Shown: one piece after another, positions 2,390-49,557 of the stretch | Position numbering within the stretch: position 1 is the stretch's first letter | Layout of the letters: the number at the start of each line of letters is the position of its first letter | Source of the DNA: Escherichia coli | GTDB lineage: Bacteria; Pseudomonadota; Gammaproteobacteria; Enterobacterales; Enterobacteriaceae | Assembly (NCBI RefSeq): GCF_029227855.1 | Contig: NZ_CP074356.1 | DNA length: 64,000 nt | Reading direction: 5' to 3' (one strand) | Translations under genes and position numbers: made by a program | The notes under the pieces: model-generated | Seen by the model: the letters and a program-made list of their open reading frames with translations, nothing else | What the model was told of the DNA's origin: nothing | Databases searched by the model: none

Positions 2390-3199
2390 ATGAATGATTC
2401 ACTCAAGGCGCAATGCGTTGCCGAGTTTTTAGGCACCGGACTGTTCCTCTTTTTTGGCATTGGTTGTTTGTGCGCCCTGAAAGTTGCCGGGGCAAGTCTG
2501 GGACTGTGGGAAATTTGTATCATTTGGGGGTTAGGGATTTCGCTTGCTGTTTACCTTACGGCAGGTATTTCCGGCGCTCATCTCAACCCGGCAGTTACCA
2601 TTGCTCTGTGGCTGTTTGCCTCTTTCCCAGCCCGTAAAGTGCTGCCATTTTGTGTGGCGCAATTAGCGGGTGCTTTTGGTGGTGCGATTCTGGCATATTC
2701 TCTCTACAGCAGTTTATTTACCGATTTTGAATCTGCTCACAATATGGTGCGTGGTAGCGCAGAAAGTTTACAACTCGCCAGTATCTTCAGTACTTATCCG
2801 GCAGCGGCGATTAATGTATGGCAAGCTGCGTTGGTCGAAGTGGTCATAACGTCCATGTTAATGGGGTTGATTATGGCGTTGACCGATGACGGTAATGGCG
2901 TACCCAAAGGACCACTTGCGCCTTTACTTATTGGTATTCTGGTTGCTGTTATTGGTGCTTCTACCGGACCATTAACCGGTTTTGCCATGAATCCAGCGCG
3001 TGATTTTGGACCTAAGATTTTCACCTGGCTTGCGGGGTGGGGAGAAATTGCGATGACTGGTGGACGCAATATTCCTTATTTCATTGTACCCATTATTGCA
3101 CCGATCATTGGGGCATGTGTTGGTGCGGCGATTTATCGCTATCTCATTGCAAAGAATTTACCTGTCAATAGTGTAGCGCCTAAAGAAATTAGCGAATAA
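2390..3199 (+). CDS. pduF: Propanediol diffusion facilitator (MIP/GlpF-family channel)
   Basis: Track ORF 2351-3199 starts at TTG; ATG at 2390 gives MNDSLKAQCVAEFLGTGLF...; NPA motifs (HLNPAVT, NPARD) typical of aquaglyceroporins. Confidence 0.85.
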   Translation: MNDSLKAQCVAEFLGTGLFLFFGIGCLCALKVAGASLGLWEICIIWGLGISLAVYLTAGISGAHLNPAVTIALWLFASFPARKVLPFCVAQLAGAFGGAILAYSLYSSLFTDFESAHNMVRGSAESLQLASIFSTYPAAAINVWQAALVEVVITSMLMGLIMALTDDGNGVPKGPLAPLLIGILVAVIGASTGPLTGFAMNPARDFGPKIFTWLAGWGEIAMTGGRNIPYFIVPIIAPIIGACVGAAIYRYLIAKNLPVNSVAPKEISE

Positions 3200-3401
3200 C
3201 GAAATAATCTGGCAGTTATAAACGTTTATTTTTTTACTGTTTGTGATCTGCTTTCCGAACTTATTAAAAAGTCTCCCGCTTCATGGAGGCTTTTGTTATT
3301 GTCCTTTGTGCTTCTCGTCAGTAAATCATCAGGGATGATGTGAAGATTAAATGTAAAACAATTGTTTTGCTATAACAATAAATTAACTGGGAGGTTTTAT
3401 C

Positions 3402-4316
3402 ATGATTTCTGCGGCGACACTTAATTCAGAACTCATTAATAAAATCGCGCAGGATTTTGCGCAGGCGACCAGCCTTGCGGTTGTCGTGGTCAATATTCAC
3501 GGCGATGAAATTTCCGAGCTGTTTAACTTCACTCCATTTTGTCAGATGATGCGGCAACACCCTCAGCTAAGCACTCGATGTCGCATGAGCGATCGTTGTG
3601 GGGGCCTGGAAGCCTCTAAATCCGATCAGCCTTGTATTTATCGCTGTCATGCCGGATTAACCGATTTCTCTATTCCACTGGTAATCGCCGGGCATTTAGT
3701 CGGTTTTGTATTGTGCGGGCAAGTTCGTCTGCGTAATGATGATGTCGATTTGGTCGATATTCTGAATGTCGATGATTGCTGGCAGGCAGATCCCGAATTA
3801 CTTAATGAATTCCGCAAAGTTCCTGAGATGGATTACTCAAGAGTTATGGCCTCTGCTGATTTGTTGAAGTTGATTGTGGAAAATTGCCTCAAAAAACAAC
3901 TCAATTTTGTGGTTATTAAAGAGAACAAATTTCAGTCAGATTCGGTGCGCCAGACTCGTGCGCCTAATCCCCACGACAATAAAATGAAAAAAGCTTTACG
4001 CTATATTGATGCGCATTTATCAGACGATTTGCGTCTGGAAGATGTCGCCTCGCACGTTTATCTAAGTCCTTATTATTTCAGTAAGTTATTCAAGAAATAC
4101 CATGGAATCGGTTTTAATGCGTGGGTAAACCAACAACGGATGGCCAGCGCTCGTGAGTTACTGTGCCATAGTGACTGGAGCATCGCCAGTATTGCGCGTA
4201 ATTTAGGTTTTTCGCAAACCAGTTATTTTTGCAAAGTTTTCCGTCAGACTTATCAGGTTACGCCGCAGGTGTATCGACAGCAAGTGAGTGAAAATGCGGT
4301 GATGGAAACGGTATAG
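3402..4316 (+). CDS. pocR: AraC-family regulator of pdu/cob regulon
   Basis: 304-aa ORF; C-terminal AraC-type HTH (YLSPYYFSKLFKK...); position downstream of pduF as in Salmonella. Confidence 0.9.
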   Translation: MISAATLNSELINKIAQDFAQATSLAVVVVNIHGDEISELFNFTPFCQMMRQHPQLSTRCRMSDRCGGLEASKSDQPCIYRCHAGLTDFSIPLVIAGHLVGFVLCGQVRLRNDDVDLVDILNVDDCWQADPELLNEFRKVPEMDYSRVMASADLLKLIVENCLKKQLNFVVIKENKFQSDSVRQTRAPNPHDNKMKKALRYIDAHLSDDLRLEDVASHVYLSPYYFSKLFKKYHGIGFNAWVNQQRMASARELLCHSDWSIASIARNLGFSQTSYFCKVFRQTYQVTPQVYRQQVSENAVMETV

Positions 4317-4419
4317 AGTAAATGCCCCAAAAAAAGAGGACGGTTTAAATAAACTCTGCAATGAATAATTAACGTTATTTACCTGTTATGGGAAAAGTGA
4401 AATCAGCTCATAACATACG

Positions 4420-4700
4420 CTGACAGGTGTGGCACATTTGTGCCTGGGAAGAGGGTGAAAATCCCTCGCAGCCCCCGCTGCTGTAATGCTGACAAACCCG
4501 AAAATGCCACTGATCGCGAGATTGGGAAGGTCGGGAGAGGATGACGCTAAGCCAGAAGACCAGCCAGTCAGTCAATACCAACAACTTCGGTGGGAAGTGG
4601 GTTGCCCGGAAGCGTCCGGTAGAGTACCGGCGCGTCTTTATACCCCTACCACCCTGAAAGGATCAGGGTATGGCGGCATCATTTAGTTCTTTCATCGCAG
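4420..4700 (+). promoter_or_regulatory. Cobalamin (B12) riboswitch-like leader
   Basis: Conserved motifs GGTGAAAATCCC...GCAGCCCCCGCTGCTGTAA and a B12-box-like element AAGCCAGAAGACCAGCC, upstream of ORF 4801-5238 and cobUST. Confidence 0.6.
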
Positions 4701-4800
4701 TGCCGACAGGCACCAGGGCTGCACTTAAGGTGTGGCAATCTTGTTTCATGGCTCATCAACCAGACCGCCATTACAGGAAACTAAGTGGAGGGCGAGAGGC

Positions 4801-5238
4801 ATGAAAACGATAAAACCCGAATCGATAGCTCTTTTTTGCCTCTTATCTGGAGATGTGGATCTGGCGAAACATTTGGCTGAAATATTGCCAATAACTTGTT
4901 TTGTTGGTGAGGACTGGCAGCAAGATTTCCAGCCTCTTGACGGTGGGCCTGTGCAATCGTTATCAGATGTGTATGGCGATTATTCAGTGCTGCTATTGAT
5001 AGCAGCTGAAAGCGAGATATCCGTACCAGAATGGCTCGCTCATTCTGAAGGAACGACGGTAATTGTGATTGCAGAACACAATACCCGTTTGCTGACTGGT
5101 CCGGCTGGTGGGGCTGTAGCATTGATCCATTATCTGAATGAAATCTGTCATTCCAGAGAAACCGCTGTCAATGACGCATTTTGTCGTACGTTAACACGAG
5201 GAAGTCTGGCTATTCCGCAATGCCATCTTCTTTCGTAA
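4801..5238 (+). CDS. Hypothetical protein (145 aa) downstream of riboswitch-like leader
   Basis: ATG at 4801 preceded by GGAGG-like RBS (track ORF 4732-5238 starts at GTG); no family recognised by eye. Confidence 0.45.
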   Translation: MKTIKPESIALFCLLSGDVDLAKHLAEILPITCFVGEDWQQDFQPLDGGPVQSLSDVYGDYSVLLLIAAESEISVPEWLAHSEGTTVIVIAEHNTRLLTGPAGGAVALIHYLNEICHSRETAVNDAFCRTLTRGSLAIPQCHLLS

Positions 5239-5371
5239 TGGATTGAGAATGCTGGATTTTTAATTATATTACGCGCAGTATTAATCGCGTAAATGTTTTG
5301 CGGTCAGCAACGGTGGGGGATCCATTGTTCTGTTCAATGAATACCATCATACAATTGAATCAGGAGTCGGT

Positions 5372-5917
5372 ATGATGATTTTGGTGACAGGTGGAGCACG
5401 GAGCGGGAAGAGTCGCCACGCAGAGGCGCTTATTGGGGACTCTTCACAGGTTCTGTATATCGCCACCTCGCAAATCCTTGATGATGAGATGGCTGCACGG
5501 ATAGAACATCATCGGCAAGGCCGCCCGGCGCACTGGCGCACGGTGGAGCGCTGGCAACATCTTGATGAATTAATTCATGCAGACATTAACCCGCATGAAG
5601 CTGTGTTGCTGGAATGCGTTACAACAATGGTGACTAATCTGTTGTTTGATTATGGCGGCGATAAAGACCCTGATGAATGGGATTATCAGGCGATGGAACA
5701 GGCGATTAATGCTGAGATTCAGTCGTTGATTGCTGCCTGCCAACGTTGCCCCGCGAAGATTGTATTAGTGACTAACGAAGTGGGAATGGGGATTGTGCCG
5801 GAGAGTCGTCTGGCACGACATTTTCGTGATATTGCCGGGCGGGTAAATCAGCAGCTGGCCGCTGCGGCAAATGAAGTGTGGCTGGTGGTTTCGGGTATTG
5901 GAGTAAAAATCAAATGA
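5372..5917 (+). CDS. cobU: Adenosylcobinamide kinase / adenosylcobinamide-phosphate guanylyltransferase
   Basis: 181-aa ORF with P-loop GGARSGKS; overlaps cobS start. Confidence 0.9.
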
Positions 5918-6657
5918 GTAAATTATTTTGGGCGATGCTCTCTTTTATTACGCGTCTGCCTGTGCCGCGTCGCTGGTCCCAGGGACTGGATTTCGAGCAT
6001 TATTCTCGCGGTATTATTACTTTTCCTTTAATTGGTTTATTGCTTGGCGCGATTAGCGGGCTGGTCTTCATGGCGTTGCAGGCATGGTTTGGCGTACCAC
6101 TGGCGGCACTGTTTAGCGTGCTGGTGCTGGCGCTGATGACCGGGGGATTCCACCTGGACGGCCTCGCCGATACCTGTGATGGCGTATTTTCTGCACGTAG
6201 CCGCGATCGCATGTTGGAAATCATGCGTGATAGCCGTTTAGGCACCCACGGCGGTCTGGCATTGATTTTTGTTGTACTGGCAAAGATTCTGGTGTTAAGC
6301 GAGCTGGCTTTGCGTGGCGAACCGATCCTTGCATCGCTGGCGGCAGCATGCGCGGTCAGCCGCGGGACTGCCGCATTATTGATGTATCGTCATCGTTATG
6401 CCCGGGAAGAAGGACTTGGCAATGTGTTCATTGGCAAAATTGATGGGCGACAAACCTGCGTCACACTCGGCTTAGCCGCTATTTTTGCTGCCGTATTATT
6501 GCCGGGTATGCATGGTGTGGCTGCTATGGTGGTGACGATGGTGGCGATTTTCATCCTCGGTCAGCTTCTCAAACGTACGCTGGGCGGGCAAACCGGCGAT
6601 ACGCTGGGAGCAGCCATAGAGCTTGGTGAACTGGTCTTCCTGCTGGCACTGCTATAA
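5914..6657 (+). CDS. cobS: Cobalamin (5'-phosphate) synthase
   Basis: Integral membrane protein; internal ATG at 5914 ([16 protein letters not shown]...) gives 247 aa; ATGA overlap with cobU. Confidence 0.9.
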
Positions 6658-6668
6658 AGAGACGTGAC

Positions 6669-7748
6669 ATGCAAATACTTGCCGATTTACTGAATACGAT
6701 CCCAGCCATCGATCCTACCGCTATGTCGCGTGCACAACGGCATATTGACGGGTTACTCAAACCTGTTGGTAGCCTGGGAAAGCTGGAGGCGCTTGCCATA
6801 CAACTGGCGGGAATGCCGGGGTTGAATGGCATACCGCATGTGGGCAAAAAAGCGGTACTGGTTATGTGTGCCGATCACGGCGTCTGGGAGGAAGGGGTCG
6901 CTATTTCCCCAAAAGAAGTGACAGCCATTCAGGCTGAAAATATGACCCGCGGAACAACCGGCCTGTGTGTGCTGGCAGCACAAGCGGGCGCTAACGTCCA
7001 CGTAATTGATGTTGGTATTGATACTGCTGAGCCTATCCCCGGGCTTATCAACATGCGTGTCGCACGAGGTAGCGGCAATATTGCTTCAGCTCCGGCAATG
7101 AGTCGCCGTCAGGCTGAAAAGTTGTTTTTGGACGTCATATGTTATACGCGGGAGCTGGCAAAAAACGGTGTCACGCTGTTTGGTGTAGGTGAACTGGGGA
7201 TGGCAAACACGACACCGGCAGCGGCAATAGTCAGCACAATCACTGGCCGGGATCCTGAAGAAGTGGTTGGGATTGGCGCAAACCTGCCGACAGATAAACT
7301 GGCTAATAAAATTGATGTTGTGCGTCGGGCGATTACGTTGAATCAACCAAATCCTCAGGATGGTGTTGATGTCCTGGCAAAAGTGGGTGGATTTGATTTG
7401 GTCGGAATAGCTGGAGTGATGTTAGGTGCTGCTTCCTGCGGTTTACCCGTGTTGCTGGATGGATTTCTTTCTTATGCTGCTGCGCTCGCAGCCTGCCAGA
7501 TGTCTCCTGCAATCAAACCGTATCTCATTCCTTCTCACTTGTCGGCAGAAAAAGGCGCGCGTATAGCGCTGTCGCATTTGGGGCTGGAGCCTTATCTCAA
7601 TATGGATATGCGTTTAGGTGAGGGGAGTGGTGCAGCTCTGGCGATGCCCATCATCGAAGCTGCTTGTGCGATATACAACAACATGGGCGAACTTGCTGCC
7701 AGTAATATTGTTCTACCGGGGAATACGACTTCTGATTTGAACAGTTAA
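6669..7748 (+). CDS. cobT: Nicotinate-nucleotide--dimethylbenzimidazole phosphoribosyltransferase
   Basis: 359-aa ORF; cobU-cobS-cobT order. Confidence 0.9.
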
Positions 7749-8800: not shown

Positions 8801-8876
8801 TGGCTCCTCTGACTGGACTCGAACCAGTGACATACGGATTAACAGTCCGCCGTTCTACCGACTGAACTACAGAGGA
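8801..8876 (-). tRNA. asnV: tRNA-Asn (GUU)
   Basis: Reverse complement reads TCCTCTGTAGTTCAGTCGGTAGAACGGCGGACTGTTAATCCG...GAGGAGCCA; one of four identical copies in the window. Confidence 0.9.
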
Positions 8877-43544: not shown

Positions 43545-43602
43545 AAAAAGGGCGGCAGAGCAGTCACGGAGTAAAACTGATACCGCCAAACGTCACCAGA
43601 AA
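43545..43602 (-). ncRNA. dicF: DicF small RNA (ftsZ-targeting antisense sRNA)
   Basis: Reverse complement reads TTTCTGGTGACGTTTGGCGGTATCAGTTTTACTCCGTGACTGCTCTGCCGCCCTTTTT, including a terminator hairpin; immediately upstream of dicB. Confidence 0.8.
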
Positions 43603-48257: not shown

Positions 48258-49401
48258 TTTTGGTTCAACTAAATACAACGTCAGTTTTGAAAAATGGCAT
48301 GAACTGTTAATGGACTATGCAGAGTTACGTGGTGGCAGTGCTGCTGATGCTGAAGCATGGCGTGATGATTATGAAGCAGGAAAAAATCCGGTCGAAGCAT
48401 ATTGTGATGAGTGGGGCGATGAATGAGCGAGATTAATTATCAGGAAGGGTATGAAACGGCGGGGCAAGCAAAACCAGTGGCATGGCGATATCGCTACGTG
48501 AAAAAAGGCGTTACGGACTTTCAGGAGAAGTAGTGGTCTGTTGACTGGAAATATGTACCGAAAAAAGAGGATTGTAACGACAGGCCGAACTATCAAATTC
48601 AGGCCTTATTCACTGCCTCACCAGCCCTGGTTACATCAGAAGAACTGGTTAAAGCTGTGCACTTTTATGAACAACTAAAACGCGAAAATCCACCAACATC
48701 CGGCAACTAGATTAATGGGTTAACTATGTCGGTTAAACGACCAGCCAACTGAAAAAGCGGAAACCTGATTATAGGTTGCCAGATAAGGCAATAAGCTACC
48801 TGGCGCGGAACGGACTGATAAGTATGGGGAATGTTTTACGATGAACCTTTAGACTAAAGAGTTTGTAACGCTATGTAAGTGATTTTTTCTAGTTTAGATA
48901 TTTATATGTCCGGCCAAATTGAGGTGTGTTTAAATGTAATTGCACATTGATTGTAGGAGGAATAATGAAAAACGCATTGCAGTTTTTGTTTGTTGCGTTC
49001 TGGTTGTTCGTATCATGTATGCCCATCATCTTCACAGCAAGGTATATGGAAAAAGTTGATGTTTTGATATTAATATTTGGATATATAAATGCCCTTTTTT
49101 TAGGGGTGTTCATGGCGGTCATGTGCATTGAATACTGGCGGTAAATACAGCGAACTCCATTGGTTTAGTTGGATATTTATTGTGCTGGACAAAAACGGTT
49201 TGCGGGGAAATCTTAGTTAAGTAGAATGACTGCGGGTGCTTGAGGCTATCTGCCTCGGGCATGAACACCAACGGCAGATAGAGAAAAGCCCCAGGTAACA
49301 TTACGCGTCCTGCAAGACGTTTAACATTAATCTGAGGCCATATCTATGCGACACATAGAGATTAGCCTCTTACGGACCGAAAGGTCAAGGAGAAGCAGGC
49401 T

Positions 49402-49557
49402 ATGAAGCAGCAAAAGGCGATGTTAATCGCCCTGATCGTCATCTGTTTAACCGTCATAGTGACGGCACTGGTAACGAGGAAAGACCTCTGCGAGGTACGA
49501 ATCCGAACCGGCCAGACGGAGGTCGCTGTCTTCACAGTTTACGAACCTGAGGAGTAA
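49402..49557 (+). CDS. hokD: Hok/Gef-family type I toxin (51 aa)
   Basis: Hand-translated MKQQKAMLIALIVICLTVIVTALVTRKDLCEVRIRTGQTEVAVFTVYEPEE; short upstream ORF ends at the hok ATG; terminator hairpin at about 49626-49650. Confidence 0.85.
   Translation: MKQQKAMLIALIVICLTVIVTALVTRKDLCEVRIRTGQTEVAVFTVYEPEE

Follow-up and report, generated by a model that had tools for sequence, protein, structure and literature searches.

In Salmonella, the ribosome-binding-site hairpin of the cob leader is a translational control element. The enzymes encoded by cobU, cobS and cobT (cobUST) serve cobinamide salvage and nucleotide-loop assembly. For B12 synthesis in enteric bacteria, Lawrence and Roth are said to have put forward a model of "loss and reacquisition". 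A further system of a related kind has been described at ppe2 of Mycobacterium tuberculosis, where a B12 riboswitch gates the ribosome-binding site of an upstream open reading frame (ORF), uPPE2, whose stop codon overlaps the downstream start, and where the dependence of ppe2 on uPPE2 translation was shown by experiment (PMC11260477). Here, we describe a cobalamin riboswitch in a stretch of 64,000 nucleotides (nt) of Escherichia coli DNA (contig NZ_CP074356.1; hereafter, the window), where the element lies downstream of pocR, the pdu/cob regulator gene, and is followed by two relic ORFs, of 44 and 145 codons, and then by cobUST. We regard it as reasonably probable that this element is the leader of an ancestral cob operon (cbiA...cbiP-cobUST), left behind after the Escherichia ancestor deleted nearly all of its cbi genes, and that the switch would now gate the relic ORFs.

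A full-length riboswitch with a conserved expression platform

Scanning the region with the Rfam cobalamin-riboswitch model gave a plus-strand match to the complete model (RF00174, model positions 1–189 of 189) that scored 109.4 bits (gathering score 31.5; E = 1.7e-26). In an E. coli genome that is 100% identical, RefSeq likewise records a riboswitch here. An earlier note on this DNA had proposed a riboswitch-like leader at this place, which the scan bears out; only the coordinate needs correction, as the note's start at 4420 lies 12 nt inside the aptamer, whose true start is 4408. The B12 box, AGCCAGAAGACCAGCC, is present, and 15 of its 16 positions are identical in seven aligned taxa, the fourteenth being A or T. 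Alifold analysis of seven aptamers, a number that affords modest power, returned 45 pairs, five of them with compensatory double changes and few of them broken. The element is in the cis position expected of such a switch (same strand, upstream of B12-related genes and with an expression platform), and the RF00174 scores at five other Escherichia loci (105–113 bits) are undiminished in every lineage. By its match to the family model, the element is assigned as a cobalamin riboswitch of known class, of the adenosylcobalamin (AdoCbl) type, and is a direct orthologue of one that has been studied. A 58-codon ORF (58 amino acids) on the minus strand, at 4408–4584, occupies exactly the stretch of the aptamer; almost certainly, it is no gene and merely results from conservation of the RNA sequence.

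In the predicted fold of the expression platform, a helix pairs 4593–4602 with 4642–4650 and is followed by a ribosome-binding-site hairpin (ACCCUGA-AAGGA-UCAGGGU, 4651–4669; arms 4651–4657 and 4663–4669), the loop of which, AAGGA, is the Shine–Dalgarno sequence and which stands directly 5' of the cbiA ATG at 4670. Both helix and hairpin are essentially identical across all Escherichia lineages and Salmonella. The ATG at 4670 is the old cbiA start, with ATGGCGGCA conserved, and the peptide of the 44-codon ORF that it opens begins MAAS..FIAVPTGT, to be compared with MAARHHAFILAGTGSG in Salmonella CbiA.

Deletion of the cbi genes from a Salmonella-type operon

For comparison we used a complete Salmonella region (L008), found through its PocR homologue and one walking step, in which the order is pocR, leader, cbiABCDETFGHJKLMNQOP, cobUST, ldtA. 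A blastn comparison of window positions 4200–5500 with this region gave four meaningful matches: (i) the 3' end of pocR; (ii) window 4404–4678 with L008 1133–1416, at 82% identity, extending from the aptamer to 9 nt (three codons) into cbiA; (iii) window 4797–4841 with the start of cbiG; and (iv) window 5341–5496 with the last 31 nt of cbiP (5341–5371) and cobU. As the four matches are ordered, the window corresponds to a Salmonella-type operon with two large deletions. By this alignment, the first deletion begins at around codon 17 of cbiA and extends to a point immediately in front of cbiG, and the second runs from about codon 120 of cbiG almost to the end of cbiP; the leader itself is, as judged from the same comparison, the orthologue of the Salmonella cob-operon (cbiA) leader. 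The order pduF-pocR upstream of the leader is likewise that of Salmonella.

The relics of the cbiA start, the cbiG N-terminus and the cbiP end thus occupy the same locus, in the same order, as their Salmonella counterparts. This shared arrangement points to a cbi operon of the Salmonella type at the same position in the ancestor of Escherichia. An operon of this type in the ancestor bears on the "loss and reacquisition" model.

The 145-codon ORF is a fragment of cbiG

The earlier note described the 145-codon ORF as being of unknown function. A homology search instead identified residues 1–118 as a match to positions 1–125 of 351 in NCBIfam NF004463 (CbiG, cobalt-precorrin-5A hydrolase; E = 5.9e-19), and blastx aligned the ORF with residues 1–119 of Salmonella CbiG at 43% identity (E = 1.5e-20). 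The ORF is therefore assigned by homology as a fragment of cbiG, in which residues 1–118 are the CbiG N-terminal domain, so that the "unknown" ORF is the N-terminal third of a cbi gene, an outcome that the note itself had named as one that would tell against its view. Although the note correctly listed this ORF, it overlooked the 44-codon ORF in front of it.

The relic stays below the NCBIfam cutoff for the whole protein (68.4 bits versus 546) and lacks the three-domain CbiG_N/CbiG_mid/CbiG_C architecture, all of which Salmonella CbiG has; a Pfam scan of the ORF gave no match even at E ≤ 10. The family profile matches the solved CbiG homologue PDB 3EEQ (E = 4e-4). In a Foldseek search with the AlphaFold model of the relic, no PDB entry matched with E ≤ 0.001; 3EEQ ranked third (3eeq_B, TMq 0.54), which we treat as weak support. 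The last ~27 residues have no traceable origin; their identification by MAFFT as the CbiG C-terminus was rejected, as 130 of 2000 shuffles did equally well for E. coli and the other five tails gave no signal.

The relic family is narrow. A phmmer search against 1.84 billion representatives yielded 33 matches and no wider family of stand-alone CbiG_N proteins, a word-based protein search found only Escherichia and Shigella relatives, and a scan of genome contigs with the ORF returned three loci, all of them Escherichia-like.

The region is transcribed in the adherent-invasive E. coli (AIEC) strain LF82. The gene LF82_328, annotated "cobalamin biosynthesis protein CbiG" and numbered, by its locus tag, next to pduF and the gene of the pdu/cob regulator, was reported with 16.7 and 13.0 reads per kilobase per million mapped reads (RPKM), and pocR with 7.3 and 10.8 (PMC4509574, Table 4 for LF82_328). 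From gene order, LF82_328 is evidently the same gene as the 145-codon ORF, and the values for the two genes therefore indicate that the region is transcribed without propanediol induction.

Purifying selection on the RNA and constraint on the relic ORFs

Jukes–Cantor distances between aptamers are 0.02–0.07 among close lineages, 0.12–0.14 to E. fergusonii and 0.17–0.19 to Salmonella, with zero indels in 175 nt, and the platform behaves likewise. For the neighbouring genes pduF, pocR, cobU, cobS, cobT and ldtA, the number of synonymous substitutions per synonymous site (dS) is 0.24–0.82, mostly 0.3–0.5, among the four to five close lineages, about 1.0–1.25 for cobS and ldtA in E. albertii pairs, and 1.1–3 to E. 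fergusonii; the ratio of nonsynonymous to synonymous rates (dN/dS) of these genes is 0.02–0.15. In the same genomes, aptamer and platform together diverge 6–8 times more slowly than the synonymous sites of the flanking genes. Nor does the E. fergusonii aptamer evolve faster, its distance to Salmonella being 0.166, as compared to 0.18–0.195 for the others. By its slow divergence and its lack of indels, the RNA is under strong purifying selection in each of the lineages, those that have lost cobUST among them. That a B12-sensing leader survived the loss of the de novo pathway, as had been suggested from the window, is supported by these data on two counts: the leader has outlived cbiA–cbiP, given its 82% match to the Salmonella cbiA leader where the cbi genes themselves are gone, and its aptamer is still under purifying selection, with compensatory pair changes.

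The cbiG relic has a synonymous divergence as high as that of its neighbours and a dN/dS of 0.27–0.57, about 0.35 (Fisher p from 3e-2 to 1e-8, and at most 1.4e-3 in 14 of 15 pairs), with about 0.18 in the first 45 codons and about 0.45 in the remainder. Simulated neutral sequences in which the frame was kept open gave Nei–Gojobori (NG86) ratios of 0.68–0.98, with a 5th percentile of 0.45–0.67, and the neutral probability for 145 codons to remain open was 0.09–0.14 per branch of 0.15–0.2 substitutions per site and 0.004–0.012 for 0.5–0.8. The relic is open in six Escherichia lineages, in which indels are in-frame only; truncated forms occur in pdu-negative E. coli. Neither of the two features of a neutral pseudogene, frame disruption across lineages and a dN/dS near neutral, was thus found. 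With a dN/dS below the simulated neutral values and a low probability of remaining open, the relic is weakly but genuinely constrained.

The 44-codon ORF is nearly neutral (dN/dS 0.24–1.9), yet it is open in all six lineages. As the simulated neutral survival of a frame of this length is 0.46–0.54 per branch, its persistence in the six lineages is only suggestive. Its TGA (4802–4804) overlaps the ATG of the cbiG relic (4801–4803) as ATGA, an overlap that is kept in five lineages. In E. fergusonii the counterpart of the 44-codon ORF is open, is unalignable beyond the first three codons and overlaps the relic by 20 nt, as Salmonella cbiF overlaps cbiG. Within the 44-codon ORF we also noted a weak plus-strand hairpin followed by a U-run (4718–4746), the run being longer, at six to seven U, in E. 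marmotae, E4736 and E. albertii and the stem changes being of the G-U to G-C type. We did not use this hairpin as a terminator or attenuator, as its folding z-score is −0.4 to +0.8 relative to shuffled sequences and equally many such sites occur by chance.

These results bear directly on whether riboswitch and ORFs are non-functional and merely undecayed, which we consider very unlikely. Although the cbi pathway is gone, the ORF is truncated with a degenerate motif, and the region has been lost from roughly 88% of E. coli genomes with no obvious ill effect, an inert remnant would not be expected to change 6–8 times more slowly than synonymous sites, free of indels and with compensatory changes, nor to retain an undiminished Rfam score in every lineage, and there is very little chance that an ORF of 145 codons would survive neutrally in all six lineages.

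Distribution in Escherichia and persistence without cobUST

Among 5426 complete E. coli genomes, the leader is present in 644 and pduAB in 642; the switch is thus found in about 12% of them, the pdu-positive ones, and the region is deleted in about 88%. Most other E. coli genomes have only the 3' part of the cbiG relic left next to cobU. In the pdu-negative E. coli loci (L002, L011 and L012), the pdu-pocR-riboswitch block is gone and the end points within the cbiG relic differ: window position 5112 with IS5 upstream (K-12-like), position 5067 with an IS4 fragment, and approximately position 4898, where what is left of pduV is joined to the relic. The block thus seems to have been lost independently several times. 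Two side observations concern the strains that carry these genes: a PocR only 81% identical to that of the window is also labelled E. coli (P0119), and in one of the complete E. coli genomes the identity of pduAB is no more than 80–90%; some strains may carry a second, foreign pdu (perhaps cbi) region.

The layout pocR-riboswitch-small ORF-cbiG relic recurs in five other lineages, E69 (labelled E. coli but a separate GTDB species representative), E. marmotae, E4736 (Escherichia sp.), E. albertii and E. fergusonii. In E. fergusonii, cobUST is missing in six of six contexts examined, the relic ORF being followed by ldtA, and both the aptamer (112.9 bits) and the two ORFs are kept. Next to ldtA of E. 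fergusonii (L006, 11903–20918) lies a glycyl-radical-enzyme microcompartment cluster, with a pyruvate formate-lyase (PFL)-like enzyme, a radical S-adenosylmethionine (SAM) activase, bacterial microcompartment (BMC) shell proteins and PTAC. In one E. albertii genome (NBRC 107761; L005, 950–2390), the cobU start is CTG rather than ATG and no cobU ORF is called, cobS is intact and cobT is missing, with riboswitch and relic ORFs intact, as if the salvage genes were decaying one after another.

Retention of the fragment where cobUST is gone is one reason to ask whether the N-terminal part of CbiG has been domesticated, that is, whether it is now a small B12-regulated protein that has its own function, linked to pdu and pocR, and the target that keeps the riboswitch under selection. 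We hold this to be possible, if doubtful. It is consistent with a dN/dS of 0.27–0.57 below the neutral range of 0.68–0.98, with the restriction of indels to in-frame events in six lineages, with co-occurrence with pduAB in E. coli (642 versus 644 of 5426), with transcription in LF82 (where the gene is identified from gene order) and with a predicted alpha/beta domain, residues 1–122, that resembles 3EEQ. However, the constraint is 3–10 times weaker than that on the neighbouring genes, the CbiG GH(A/V)GGAN motif is lost and no Pfam family matches, the C-terminal 25 residues are predicted to be disordered, the family is confined to Escherichia and Shigella, co-occurrence with pdu may reflect no more than physical linkage, and truncated forms are common in E. 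coli.

A more specific proposal would be that Escherichia kept the cob switch as a B12 sensor for the pdu/pocR locus and domesticated the CbiG N-terminal domain as a B12-repressed small protein with a new corrinoid-related role, both being maintained independently of cobUST. Independence is invoked because both persist where cobUST function has been lost, in E. fergusonii and in one or more E. albertii genomes; the proposal as a whole seems to us rather unlikely.

The cobUST genes and the spacer upstream of them

The spacer in front of cobU contains the promoter-like sequences TTGAGA-16-TATATT (5243–5270) and TACAAT (5350–5355), and cobUST appears to have its own promoter region. Several promoters were reportedly described for K-12 cobUST by Lawrence and Roth (1995). 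Between the cbiG relic and cobU there is also a perfect 7-bp inverted repeat on the plus strand, TTACGCG-N10-CGCGTAA (5269–5292), followed by ATGTTTTG. Other Escherichia species retain the repeat only in part, and it might serve as a weak terminator or bind a protein.

As the earlier note suggested, the switch may plausibly control cobUST, given the arrangement of the locus. If cobUST were the real main target, the switch would make cobinamide salvage B12-repressible, and the relic ORFs would stay open only so that ribosomes protect the transcript as far as cobU. The genes lie on the same strand, 134 nt past the relic ORF, with no strong terminator seen in between by the terminator scan; Salmonella cobUST forms the distal end of the same riboswitch-controlled operon; and a 44-codon ORF that is nearly neutral yet in frame fits a translated spacer. 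Set against this are the six of six E. fergusonii contexts that lack cobUST and keep a 112.9-bit aptamer with both ORFs, the E. albertii genome without cobU and cobT that also keeps switch and ORFs, the near-identity of the cobU spacer in K-12-like strains that have IS5 and no switch, and the dN/dS of about 0.18 in the first 45 relic codons, an amino-acid constraint beyond what a spacer needs. We can entertain cobUST as the main target only tentatively, and, as the switch is kept in E. fergusonii and E. albertii where cobUST function was lost, control of cobUST cannot be the sole reason for its retention.

Gene order and other features of the window

Positions 4300–5400 of the window are 100% identical to E. 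coli strain NRZ14408, and the features of the locus are compiled in Table 1; ldtA lies downstream of cobT.

Table 1. Positions of the riboswitch, the relic ORFs and their neighbours in the window
Feature	Position	Strand	Basis or remark
pduB, pduA		−	Start of the local gene order
pduF	2390–3199		Upstream of pocR
pocR, pdu/cob regulator	3402–4316	+	NCBIfam NF047788, 553 bits (cutoff 500); RefSeq annotation
Spacer between pocR and aptamer	4317–4407	+	91 nt
Cobalamin (AdoCbl-type) riboswitch aptamer	4408–4582	+	RF00174, full model
B12-box core AGCCAGAAGACCAGCC	4550–4565	+	Sequence
Expression platform	4583–4669	+	Folding; helix and ribosome-binding-site hairpin
44-codon relic ORF from the cbiA start codon	4670–4804	+	ORF list; Salmonella comparison
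145-codon cbiG relic	ATG 4801, stop ends 5238	+	NCBIfam; blastx
Spacer before cobU	5239–5371	+	133 nt
cobU	5372–5917	+	NCBIfam equivalog above cutoff; RefSeq annotation
cobS	5914–6657	+	NCBIfam equivalog above cutoff; RefSeq annotation
cobT	6669–7748	+	NCBIfam equivalog above cutoff; RefSeq annotation

No plus-strand terminator was seen after pocR in the terminator scan. With neither a plus-strand terminator nor a promoter found between pocR and the aptamer, the riboswitch might act on pocR or pdu instead of on the genes downstream. It could form a 3' element through which the pocR transcript responds to B12, or it could terminate a regulatory RNA, by analogy with Listeria, whose B12 riboswitches control non-coding RNAs. 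Linkage of the switch to pocR and pdu is invariable, and riboswitch-controlled regulatory RNAs are known in B12-dependent catabolism (PMC5282855). However, as the switch lies downstream of pocR on the same strand, no antisense RNA is possible, and conservation of the Salmonella-type translational platform and of the cbiA start points to translation downstream, so that action on pocR or pdu would be highly improbable.

In the intergenic region between pduF and pocR, Rfam reports a match to the enterobacterial small RNA STnc230 on the minus strand (3258–3341; 71.1 bits, gathering score 50), which also occurs in four other Escherichia loci (L003, L004, L009 and L010) and in E. fergusonii (L006). 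Farther along the window are Rfam matches to EFASI RNA (16543–16670), C4 antisense RNA (18104–18192), DicF (43550–43601), sok antitoxin RNA (49234–49404) and STnc100 (53648–53837), as well as repeated transfer RNA (tRNA) matches at 8804, 11213, 13034 and 37972, the first two of which are tRNA-Asn according to RefSeq; these suggest prophage or island material.

Discussion

If the leader is indeed what remains of an ancestral cob operon, it may act as follows. AdoCbl binding would keep the ribosome-binding-site hairpin closed, and translation at the old cbiA start would be blocked, as in the Salmonella cob leader. With the 44-codon ORF silent, ATGA coupling would result in less translation of the cbiG relic, and the long untranslated stretch could in turn lead to transcription stop or mRNA decay before cobU, a form of polarity that is possibly Rho-dependent. 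As the cobUST genes seem to possess a promoter region of their own, at most a B12-repressible share of their expression would be due to the switch. The cbiG relic may be an independent small protein, or else a translated spacer through which the decision of the switch is relayed downstream.

Several observations weigh against this reading. Upstream, the spacer before the aptamer is 91 nt here versus 325 nt in Salmonella, with a 16-nt patch as the only aligned part, and some 235 nt of what is promoter and 5' leader in Salmonella are missing here; the spacer between pocR and the aptamer contains no sigma-70-like site that passes the promoter scan. The cbiG relic has a GGAGG of its own at 4787–4791, 9 nt before its ATG, and could perhaps be translated without being coupled to the 44-codon ORF. 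Downstream, no clear terminator or Rho site has been demonstrated, and the 133-nt spacer before cobU hardly differs between the window and those K-12-like strains that carry IS5 upstream and lack the riboswitch. As for the product, the CbiG motif LLSGH(A/V)GGAN is degenerate, reading LLTGPAGGAV in the relic and LSSSSGKAT in E. fergusonii, and the AlphaFold model has a moderate mean predicted local distance difference test (pLDDT) score of 63.8, with a compact alpha/beta domain at residues 1–122 and a tail (121–145) below 50.

A literature search found no description of this relic leader in Escherichia. New with respect to the literature found are genus-wide retention of the switch under purifying selection after loss of the operon, the cbiA'/cbiG' ORF pair, and persistence without cobUST. 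The locus illustrates that a riboswitch can outlive its operon and stay selected genus-wide, a naturally occurring example of a regulatory element that is retained when its pathway is lost. In about 12% of the complete E. coli genomes, those of AIEC such as LF82 included, it is a second AdoCbl riboswitch besides that of btuB, and it adjoins genes for B12-dependent propanediol use and for cobinamide salvage, both of which are relevant to growth in the gut. Its practical value is modest: a predicted ready-made B12-responsive element and a small ORF with a testable function.

Comparison with known systems

The closest relative is the Salmonella cob leader, which has the same locus (pduF-pocR-leader-...-cobUST-ldtA), the same hairpin and the same upstream helix. 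While 17 cbi genes follow there, only the relics cbiA' (44 codons) and cbiG' (145 codons) do so here. With CbiG itself the relic shares the homology of its residues 1–118 to CbiG positions 1–125; it differs in that the middle and C-terminal domains are missing and that the substrate pathway is absent from the genome. The btuB leader of E. coli belongs to the same Rfam family and is an AdoCbl translational OFF switch in the same species (PMC5282855 and established knowledge), although locus and target differ and btuB is present in essentially all E. coli, as opposed to about 12% for the cob switch. Finally, the ATGA at 4801–4804 gives the locus the tight overlap of stop and start that characterizes M. 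tuberculosis ppe2; here, however, coupling would follow from the ATGA only, the upstream ORF is what remains of cbiA, and a separate Shine–Dalgarno sequence precedes the downstream one.

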